DNA of 64,000 nucleotides, taken from NCBI RefSeq assembly GCF_056712565.1, contig NZ_CM160072.1, one strand, 5' to 3'. A program made the translations under genes and the position numbers. The notes under the pieces were generated by a model. The model was not told the origin of the DNA and did no database searches. It worked only from the letters and a program-made list of their open reading frames with translations. Below, in pieces: positions 7,432-32,010 of this stretch. Each line of letters starts with the position of its first letter. The first letter of the stretch is position 1.

Positions 7432-8292
7432 CTAGTTATTAACATTAAAAAGATGGCTTACGCTTTCGGCTAACGTTGTCGTTGGGCGGCCAATCAATTT
7501 GCTAAGCGTTTTGCTGTCATCAAACAGACCGCCTTTCGATGCGCCAACGTCAGAATCCGCCAGCATATCCGCCAGTCCATCAGGCAGTCCGACGCTTTTC
7601 AGTGCCGCAGCGAAATCGGCTTCGCTCAGGTTTTGATAGGTAATCGGTTTGCCGCTCTGTTTGGTGAGTTCTGCCGCTAACTGTGTCAGTGTCCAGGCAC
7701 TATCGCCCGCCAGTTCGTAAACCTTGCCTTCATGACCGGCTTCGCTAATTACGCGCGCCGCAGCTACCGCATAATCAGCCCGCGTTGCTGAGGCAATCTT
7801 GCCATCGCCCGCGGCACCGATAAATACGCCGTGTTCCAGTGCTGCCGGGGCGCTGGCGAGGTAGTTTTCGGTGTACCAGCCGTTGCGCAGCAGAGTGTAA
7901 ACGATGCCAGAATCAGCCAGCATTTTCTCCGTCTCGATGTGCTCATCGGCGAGGCCGAGCGGGGAGGAATCGGCATGTAGCAGGCTGGTATAAGCGATAA
8001 ATTTCACGTCGGCCGCCTTTGCGGCATTAATAACATTACGATGCTGCGGGGCACGTTGACCCACTTCGCTGGAAGAGATCAGCAGTAGTTTTTCCACTCC
8101 CTGAAGCGCAGATGTCAGTGCGGCTTCATCGCCGTAATCAGCCTGACGCACGGTAATGCCTTGTGCTGTCAGTACCTGTGCTTTTGCCGGATTACGAACG
8201 ATAGCCACTATTTGGCTGGCAGGAACCGTTTTCATCAAGGATTCAATAACATAGTGACCAAGTTGGCCAGTGGCACCAGTAATAGCGATCAT
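7432..8292 (-). CDS. qorB: NAD(P)H:quinone oxidoreductase (NmrA-like)
   Basis: 286-aa ORF; N-terminal GATGQLG Rossmann motif. Confidence 0.9.
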   Translation of the reverse strand: MIAITGATGQLGHYVIESLMKTVPASQIVAIVRNPAKAQVLTAQGITVRQADYGDEAALTSALQGVEKLLLISSSEVGQRAPQHRNVINAAKAADVKFIAYTSLLHADSSPLGLADEHIETEKMLADSGIVYTLLRNGWYTENYLASAPAALEHGVFIGAAGDGKIASATRADYAVAAARVISEAGHEGKVYELAGDSAWTLTQLAAELTKQSGKPITYQNLSEADFAAALKSVGLPDGLADMLADSDVGASKGGLFDDSKTLSKLIGRPTTTLAESVSHLFNVNN

Positions 8293-8340
8293 GGGAAGTC
8301 TCCATCGTTTTGTCTTGTGTTTAAATACGCTAACACTTAA

Positions 8341-8357
8341 ACTTACTTTTAGTAAGT
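8341..8357. promoter_or_regulatory. 7-bp inverted repeat ACTTACT-N3-AGTAAGT in qorB/ytfH divergent region; candidate YtfH operator
   Basis: Perfect palindrome read directly; lies between divergent starts of qorB (8292) and ytfH (8381). Confidence 0.4.
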
Positions 8358-8380
8358 ACGTACAAAAAGGTAAGTATGAA

Positions 8381-8761
8381 ATGAGTCAGGTTAGCCTGTC
8401 GCAACAACTCAAAGAGGGAAATCTCTTCGCTGAACAGTGTCCGTCGCGCGAGGTTTTGAAACACGTCACCAGCCGTTGGGGGGGGTTGATTCTGGTGGCG
8501 CTACGCGAAGGTACTCATCGCTTTAGCGACCTGCGGCGCAAAATCGGCGGGGTGAGTGAAAAGATGCTTGCGCAGTCGTTACAGGCGCTAGAGCAGGATG
8601 GTTTTCTTAACCGTATCGCGTATCCGGTGGTGCCGCCGCATGTGGAATATAGCCTCACGCCGCTGGGCGAGCAGGTGAGCGAAAAGGTTGCTGCACTGGC
8701 GGACTGGATTGAGTTGAATTTGCCCGAGGTGTTAGCGGTGCGGGATGAACGTGCGGCATAA
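8381..8761 (+). CDS. ytfH: HxlR-family transcriptional regulator
   Basis: ORF 8270-8761 trimmed to Met at 8381 preceded by AAGGTAAG; winged-helix HxlR-like sequence. Confidence 0.85.
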   Translation: MSQVSLSQQLKEGNLFAEQCPSREVLKHVTSRWGGLILVALREGTHRFSDLRRKIGGVSEKMLAQSLQALEQDGFLNRIAYPVVPPHVEYSLTPLGEQVSEKVAALADWIELNLPEVLAVRDERAA

Positions 8762-31894: not shown

Positions 31895-32010
31895 ACAAAA
31901 TCATTCGCACTGCATCGAGACGGAAAGTGAATGAGAGCAGGGGAGCGTACTCGTAGTACGTGACTCGGGCGAATGAGCGTAGCCGTCGATGAGGCAGTGT
32001 GAAGGATGAA
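31895..32010. repeat. ERIC/IRU-like imperfect palindromic intergenic element (diverged)
   Basis: GTGAATgagagcAGGGGAGCgTACtcgtAGTACGTGACTCGGGcGAatGAGCG resembles ERIC core; central palindrome CGTACT-cgt-AGTACG; by-eye comparison to remembered consensus. Confidence 0.45.

Follow-up and report, generated by a model that had tools for sequence, protein, structure and literature searches.

A predicted tandem operator for the HxlR-family regulator YtfH in the divergent qorB/ytfH spacer

The spacer between the divergently transcribed genes qorB and ytfH probably carries operators, predicted to be bound by the HxlR-family regulator YtfH, through which this protein would repress qorB and autoregulate its own gene by promoter occlusion, and from which it would be released by modification of the cysteine C20. 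The operator most likely extends over 35 bp (8341–8375) as a tandem pair of dyads, which we call O1 and O2. The initial annotation had proposed a single palindrome at 8341–8357 as a YtfH operator for autoregulation and qorB control. The regulatory role finds support in a 39-bp block conserved across 79 species, in the recurrence of the motif at distant HxlR/NmrA loci, in the overlap with predicted promoters and in the derepression of qorB reported in a preprint, whereas the single palindrome gives way to the tandem pair, of which it appears to be only the first half. All coordinates refer to the stretch of DNA analysed (64 kb of an E. coli chromosome), hereafter the window.

The sequence at 8341–8357 (ACTTACTTTTAGTAAGT) reads ACTTACT-TTT-AGTAAGT, confirming the perfect inverted repeat described there before: the 7-nt arms are 100% complementary around a 3-nt spacer, and their extension is blocked by an A at both 8340 and 8358. 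The repeat lies inside the A/T-rich qorB/ytfH spacer (88 bp, 33% G+C), between the two divergent starts as had been stated, though not midway, the centre at 8349 being 57 bp from the qorB ATG (8292) and 32 bp from the ytfH ATG (8381). By itself this palindrome is weak evidence for function, because 7.5% of mononucleotide shuffles of the spacer yield at least one perfect repeat with 7-nt arms. There are 84 perfect inverted repeats with 7-nt arms and spacers of 0–10 nt in the window, against 50 ± 10 expected from window simulations matched for dinucleotide frequency (first-order Markov), and four of the 84 have a 3-nt spacer (perfect 7-3-7), a chance number. The excess of such repeats over the whole window, about 3 sd, may reflect terminators or REP-type elements elsewhere. 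No other copy of the site was found in the 64 kb when up to three mismatches were allowed; degenerate matches to the dyad at 31945 and 57014 were considered as extra sites and rejected as G+C-rich, unrelated and at chance level. Two points had been absent from the initial annotation, namely that the perfection of the palindrome is not a conserved property, and that a third copy of the half-site, GTAAGTA, occurs at 8370–8376, 18 bp downstream of the right half of O1.

What points to function is the phylogenetic footprint rather than the perfection of the palindrome. We considered 80 genomes from the Enterobacteriaceae, Morganella and Proteus with a YtfH orthologue at 77–98% identity, 78 of which have a qorB orthologue divergently upstream of ytfH. 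Spacer boundaries could be set in 78 genomes, and these spacers were aligned together with that of the window (n = 79). Across these 79 spacers, the 39-bp block at 8342–8380 has a mean major-allele frequency of 0.968, with 92% of its columns at 0.9 or above. The qorB-proximal part of the spacer (8293–8340) is more diverged, with a mean of 0.746, and the four-fold sites of ytfH and qorB have means of 0.61–0.62 in the 79 species. The DNA sequence of the block is thus under strong purifying selection. Conservation in orthologous intergenic regions had been put forward as a check on the palindrome, and it is the 39-bp block that passes it; perfection of the palindrome does not, being found in 21 of the 79 species, with a single mismatch in a further 43. 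Positions C8342, T8343, A8345, C8346, T8347 and G8352 to T8357 are 100% conserved, and 8344 is A in 56 species and T in 22; the commonest form of O1 is ACTAACT-TTT-AGTAAGT. Judged from this alignment, perfect symmetry is a peculiarity of Escherichia and Citrobacter. Within E. coli, the 1.4 kb around the site are 100% identical to several ExPEC/APEC strains, and the same region is present in 5416 of 5426 complete genomes, with RefSeq naming qorB and ytfH there. The divergent strain E. coli AST85 (NZ_AP043644.1) has a G-to-A change at the equivalent of 8352, a position otherwise invariant, so that the right half of O1 reads AATAAGT, and has lost 1 nt of ATGAAATG in the start region (equivalent to 8379); it offers a natural variant of the predicted operator.

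The invariant columns fall into two adjoining dyads (Table 1). O2 directly adjoins O1, whose right half recurs 18 bp further on as the right half of O2. Symmetric pairs of positions are invariant in the 79 species in both dyads, namely C8342/G8356, T8343/A8355 and C8346/G8352 in O1, and A8358/T8375, C8359/G8374, A8362/T8371 and C8363/G8370 in O2. Between the half-sites lie A/T tracts that are able to flip, TTT being replaced by AAA in Proteus (for instance ACTTACTAAAAGTAAGT). Such a combination of dyad-symmetric invariance with variable or flipping spacers has the signature of a site for a dimeric protein, and both O1 and O2 are palindromes or pseudopalindromes of 15–18 bp with half-sites about one helical turn apart. 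The spacing of the half-sites differs by 1 bp between the two, and O2 may therefore bind differently or more weakly. In most genera AAAGG (8366–8370) and ATG (8376) also act in translation, as the ribosome-binding site and the start codon, and the operator need not account for all of the conservation of the block.

Table 1. Positions of genes, predicted operator dyads and predicted promoter elements in the qorB/ytfH region
Feature	Position	Strand	Description	Basis
O1 (predicted)	8341–8357		ACTTAC-TTTTA-GTAAGT; dyad RCnnAC-N5-GTnnGT, 6-5-6, 17 bp, centre 8349	pattern in 79/79
O2 (predicted)	8358–8375		imperfect ACGTAC-AAAAAG-GTAAGT; ACnnAC-N6-GTnnGT, 6-6-6, 18 bp, centre 8366.5	pattern in 79/79
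Phylogenetic footprint	8342–8380		O1, O2 and Shine-Dalgarno/ancestral ytfH start region	allele-frequency scan, 79 spacers
qorB, predicted extended −10	8327–8335	−	TGT TAGCGT; expected start near 8320–8321	
qorB, predicted −35	8350–8355	−	TTACTA, 17-bp spacer; within O1 right arm and spacer	sequence inference
ytfH, candidate promoter 1	8315–8320, 8338–8343	+	TTGTGT-17-TAAACT	
ytfH, candidate promoter 2	8320–8325, 8344–8349	+	TTTAAA-18-TACTTT	
ytfH	8381–8761	+	126-aa HxlR/DUF24-family winged-helix regulator, single Cys C20 in CPS motif	
qorB (ytfG)	7432–8292	−	NmrA-like NAD(P)H:quinone oxidoreductase, presumed target	PF05368 NmrA, PF13460, RefSeq name

More distant orthologues were sought in a library of representatives at 50% identity, and contigs were recovered for nine of them. 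In eight (52–68% identical) there is a divergent gene upstream, or the end of a short contig, and this upstream gene was called NmrA-like in five of the eight loci, all of which bear the motif. Each of the eight keeps the architecture [CTnAC]-N5-GTAAGTAC-[nnAC]-N6-GTWAGT, with the 6-bp spacer of O2 reading AAAAAG, TTTTTG, ATAAAG, CTGAAG or ATTCTT. One of these loci is from Serratia plymuthica, and two belong to 90% clusters with proteins of Rhodobacter capsulatus and Solidesulfovibrio magneticus; in the Solidesulfovibrio-like locus (L085) both half-sites of O1 have changed symmetrically, to CTTTC/GAAAG. The fourth half-site stands about 0–40 nt from the start codon in the distant loci and is separate from the Shine-Dalgarno (for instance GGTTAGTAAGGACATG in L084), and because the distance varies and the Shine-Dalgarno is separate, translation signals do not account for the conservation of this half-site. 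The motif was absent from the ninth homologue (48–51% identical), which is preceded by no divergent gene and counts no NmrA gene among its called neighbours. Taken from sequence comparison, these loci support the view that the motif travels with the HxlR-family regulator gene, beside HxlR/NmrA pairs, into other bacterial classes. The Serratia plymuthica contig (CP093323.1, from 3426) carries a second HxlR-family gene about 1.5 kb downstream of the ytfH-like gene, adjoining a short-chain dehydrogenase and a YCII gene, which may be another regulator/oxidoreductase pair.

A complementary picture comes from genomes that lack qorB. In Lelliottia nimipressuralis CCUG 25894 (L038, 2430–2500) a thioredoxin-like gene lies upstream of ytfH instead; O1 is kept as a different perfect palindrome, ACTAACT-TTT-AGTTAGT, and the decay of O2 amounts to 7 changes within 27 nt. 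In L066, a second strain of this species, both qorB and an intact O2 are present. In Enterobacteriaceae bacterium RIT714 (L053, 2400–2500) qorB is also missing, and the old spacer, O1 and a nearly intact O2 (one half-site change, ACGTAA) still precede ytfH, a retention that would fit autoregulation persisting by itself.

The dyads overlap the positions at which we would place the promoters of both genes. A strict sigma-70 consensus scan of 8150–8550 returned no promoter, and the promoter model in Table 1 is based on a looser position-weight scan together with the pattern of conservation. On the minus strand, columns 8335, 8334, 8332, 8331 and 8327 are 100% conserved in the 79 species and those between them are variable, giving TGnTAnnnT, and TTACTA-17-TAGCGT with its TG is the best minus-strand promoter in 60 of them. 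O1 would then lie at about −21 to −37 of the predicted qorB start and O2 just upstream of the predicted −35, and the overlap of O1 with this −35 fits the position of a repressor. Reading the sequences of the distant loci, we found the 8-bp gap between the −10 and O1 in several of these as well. The ytfH promoter is placed with low confidence, since the top plus-strand prediction changes from species to species (its −10 starts at 8343 in 20, at 8338 in 19, at 8331 in 14 and at 8361 in 13); either candidate would, at the same low confidence, put O1 over the −10/+1 and O2 in the early transcribed region. The spacer was bound by sigma-70 holoenzyme RNA polymerase in genomic SELEX (PMC3946193). The qorB promoter tabulated in that study (TCGACA-15-TACATT) has no occurrence in the window and was left out of the model for that reason; it is either strain-specific or a mis-assignment in the table.

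The product of ytfH had been assigned to the HxlR family, and this holds: residues 29–115 match Pfam PF01638 (E = 4.1e-32, 110 bits against a cut-off of 20.8), a winged helix. The protein also matches its Salmonella orthologue of solved structure (PDB ID: 1YYV; E = 3e-69), as well as the solved HxlR (PDB ID: 7BZD), HypR (PDB ID: 4A5M) and YodB (PDB ID: 5HS7; E = 4e-11). C20 aligns with the N-terminal sensing cysteine of HxlR and with the cysteine of two further family members of known structure, and C20-P21-S22 is invariant in 10 diverse orthologues (48–64% identity). Members of the family typically have a reactive cysteine in an N-terminal CP motif about 13 residues before a conserved Trp, and C20 of YtfH corresponds to it.

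That YtfH represses qorB is supported independently, at the functional level, by a knockdown carried out by others. In a preprint of December 2025 (bioRxiv 10.64898/2025.12.20.695731, Supplementary note 6), CRISPRi of ytfH raised qorB by a log2 of 4.6 (about 24-fold), with qorB as the sole differentially expressed gene; only about 4% of cells showed the effect, and dCas9 near a divergent promoter could have local effects that bear on this result. The preprint also names ytfH as one of the regulators “without previous binding data”, and our search of the literature found no published characterisation of a YtfH binding site.

On the explanation that we favour, one YtfH homodimer would probably occupy each dyad. 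On the qorB side, a sigma-70 promoter with a conserved extended −10, the dimer on O1 would cover the −35 hexamer and the spacer; on the ytfH side it would cover the −10/+1. The dimer on O2 would sit just upstream of the qorB −35, where the ytfH transcript begins. YtfH so placed would keep RNA polymerase off both divergent promoters, leaving qorB repressed, as the published knockdown indicates, and ytfH autoregulated. Modification of C20 by quinones, or by other thiol-reactive oxidants or electrophiles, would release YtfH, by analogy with QorR, YodB and QsrR, and the quinone reductase QorB would be induced. A more specific proposal, possible and offered tentatively, is that the 35 bp form an ancient operator of four half-sites (ACnnAC-N5-GTnnGT followed by ACnnAC-N6-GTnnGT), kept from the Enterobacteriaceae to the Rhodobacter-like and Solidesulfovibrio-like contigs, to which two YtfH dimers bind cooperatively, O1 sufficing for autoregulation and O2 being needed for tight repression of qorB and setting the threshold of induction. 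Such a division of labour is hinted at by the qorB-less Lelliottia, where a perfect O1 was kept and O2 decayed.

Other explanations of the conserved block have to be weighed against this one. The block could consist mainly of core-promoter and translation signals (the qorB −35, an UP-like A/T tract, the ytfH −10, leader, Shine-Dalgarno and start codon), with the palindrome a by-product of interdigitated divergent promoters. O1 does coincide with the predicted qorB −35 and a candidate ytfH −10, AAAGG and the ATG at 8376 are translation signals in most genera, and sigma-70 holoenzyme alone binds this A/T-rich spacer. Yet the qorB −10 varies at three of its six positions while the half-sites of O1 and O2 are invariant, hexamers being more tolerant of variation, and promoters do not require that invariant positions be arranged with dyad symmetry. 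Nor would promoter and translation signals account for a fourth half-site that, in the distant loci, has a Shine-Dalgarno of its own and is separated from the start codon by a varying interval, for the persistence of the motif in RIT714 without qorB, or for the derepression of qorB on ytfH knockdown, and we consider this account unlikely. Still less probable, in our judgement, is that the dyads are the operator of some other transcription factor, such as a global stress regulator or another winged-helix protein, and that YtfH acts elsewhere. The many MarR-like and other winged-helix regulators of E. coli, and the listing of ytfH as lacking binding data, speak for this, but from Escherichia to the Rhodobacter- and Solidesulfovibrio-like contigs no DNA-binding gene other than the adjacent HxlR-family one accompanies the motif, and the knockdown of ytfH derepresses qorB specifically. 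As for one such system, we know of no fit between the element and the MarA/SoxS/Rob box consensus when the sequences are compared by eye.

An inverted repeat may also act as a nucleic-acid hairpin, either as a stem in the leader RNA, as a stem switch sequestering the ytfH Shine-Dalgarno, or as a DNA cruciform. Both a short stem (8341–8347/8351–8357) and a long one (8341–8350/8366–8375) were considered. The central pair is broken in 42 (short) and 46 (long) of 61 distinct orthologous sequences, there are 1 and 4 compensatory cells, respectively, and the covariation of both stems is mostly no better than that of shuffled controls. At 8344 the left arm has A in place of T in 56 of the 79 species, with both of its partner arms fixed. 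Folding does give −5.4 kcal/mol (z = −3.3) for the 7-bp hairpin of E. coli and −9.1 kcal/mol (z = −2.6) for a 10-bp helix of the left arm with AAAGGUAAGU, but the stems are weak and A/U-rich, and the left arm would be untranscribed from the likelier ytfH start sites. A scan of 8100–8600 against Rfam at E ≤ 1 gave no match. The hairpin, including the Shine-Dalgarno-sequestering RNA, was rejected on the covariation test with the 61 distinct orthologous blocks, and we regard it as highly improbable. A functionless palindrome arising by chance in an A/T-rich spacer would agree with the frequency of such repeats among the shuffles and with the expected number of 7-3-7 repeats in the window; it is refuted by the near-invariance in 79 species and the recurrence in other bacterial classes, and we give it practically no credence.

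The predicted YtfH site is most likely a further example of a known switch in which a thiol-sensing repressor of the DUF24/HxlR family controls a quinone reductase. QorR of Corynebacterium glutamicum (qor2/qorA; Ehira et al. 2009, J Biol Chem 284:16736, as cited in PMC3351151) is, from what the citing paper relates, a DUF24/HxlR regulator that represses the gene of a quinone oxidoreductase and carries a sensing cysteine near its N terminus. It comes from another phylum, YtfH is not a demonstrated orthologue of it, the target here is an NmrA-like (QOR2-type) reductase, and the likeness is one of family, cysteine and kind of target; some annotators do label the Citrobacter orthologues of YtfH “QorR”. 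YodB of Bacillus subtilis, a repressor of quinone and azo reductases that recognises TACT-N7-AGTA (PMC8063818), and QsrR of Staphylococcus aureus, which is released when its cysteine is alkylated by quinones (PMC6798810), share with YtfH the family, the fold and the conserved N-terminal cysteine (quinone-alkylated or disulfide-forming). Their operators are likewise palindromes of about 15–17 bp with an A/T spacer that overlap the promoters of quinone or azo reductases. The YodB box nevertheless differs from the ACnnAC-N5/6-GTnnGT at ytfH (half-site GTAAGT), and YodB and QsrR have multi-gene regulons whereas YtfH apparently controls only its neighbour (10.64898/2025.12.20.695731). YtfH, with one cysteine, also lacks the C-terminal Cys101/108 partner of YodB, so that an intersubunit disulfide in the manner of YodB is unavailable to it.

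HypR of Bacillus subtilis binds a 7-2-7 inverted repeat, also at its own promoter (PMC3351151). HypR and HxlR belong to the same Pfam family as YtfH, and it is with the sensing cysteine of HxlR that C20 aligns, but both are activators with sites upstream of the target promoter (−53 to −95 for HypR), whereas the site predicted for YtfH overlaps the predicted −35 and spacer. Repression by YtfH is indicated because its knockdown derepresses qorB. A precedent for a tandem such as O1 and O2 is found in CatR, a DUF24-family repressor with two CatR boxes at the catDE promoter, which differs in being co-regulated by YodB and Fur; the likeness drawn here is one of the number of boxes.

YtfH is among the 58 transcription factors of E. 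coli K-12 counted as uncharacterised in 2022 (PMC9308461). The operator predicted at 8341–8375, together with the promoter model, makes the link between YtfH and qorB testable by a few point mutations, and the tandem dyads (GTAAGTAC...GTAAGT) can be used to annotate the same switch across Proteobacteria and beyond. The comparison suggests that E. coli owns a cysteine-based sensor of quinones or electrophiles like QorR and YodB, beside its other electrophile and oxidant sensors. This adds no new principle of regulation and is unsurprising, though useful for completing the regulatory network of E. coli.

The start codon of ytfH differs among genera. Outside Escherichia, most genera begin ytfH at the ATG at 8376 (GTATGAAAAC... 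in Enterobacter; ATGAAGATG, in frame, in Citrobacter). In Escherichia this ATG is 5 nt out of frame and opens a mini-ORF of two codons, ATG AAA TGA (8376–8384), whose stop overlaps the annotated ytfH ATG (8381) as ATGA. The arrangement might couple translation of the two frames, or it may be no more than a start codon that has moved. A GTG-initiated ORF of 163 aa (8270–8761, plus strand) extends ytfH upstream over the whole spacer into qorB, and the lengths of E. coli YtfH in databases range from 126 to 212 aa. The longer forms are probably mis-calls of the start codon, because translation would run through the predicted operator and the poorly conserved spacer.
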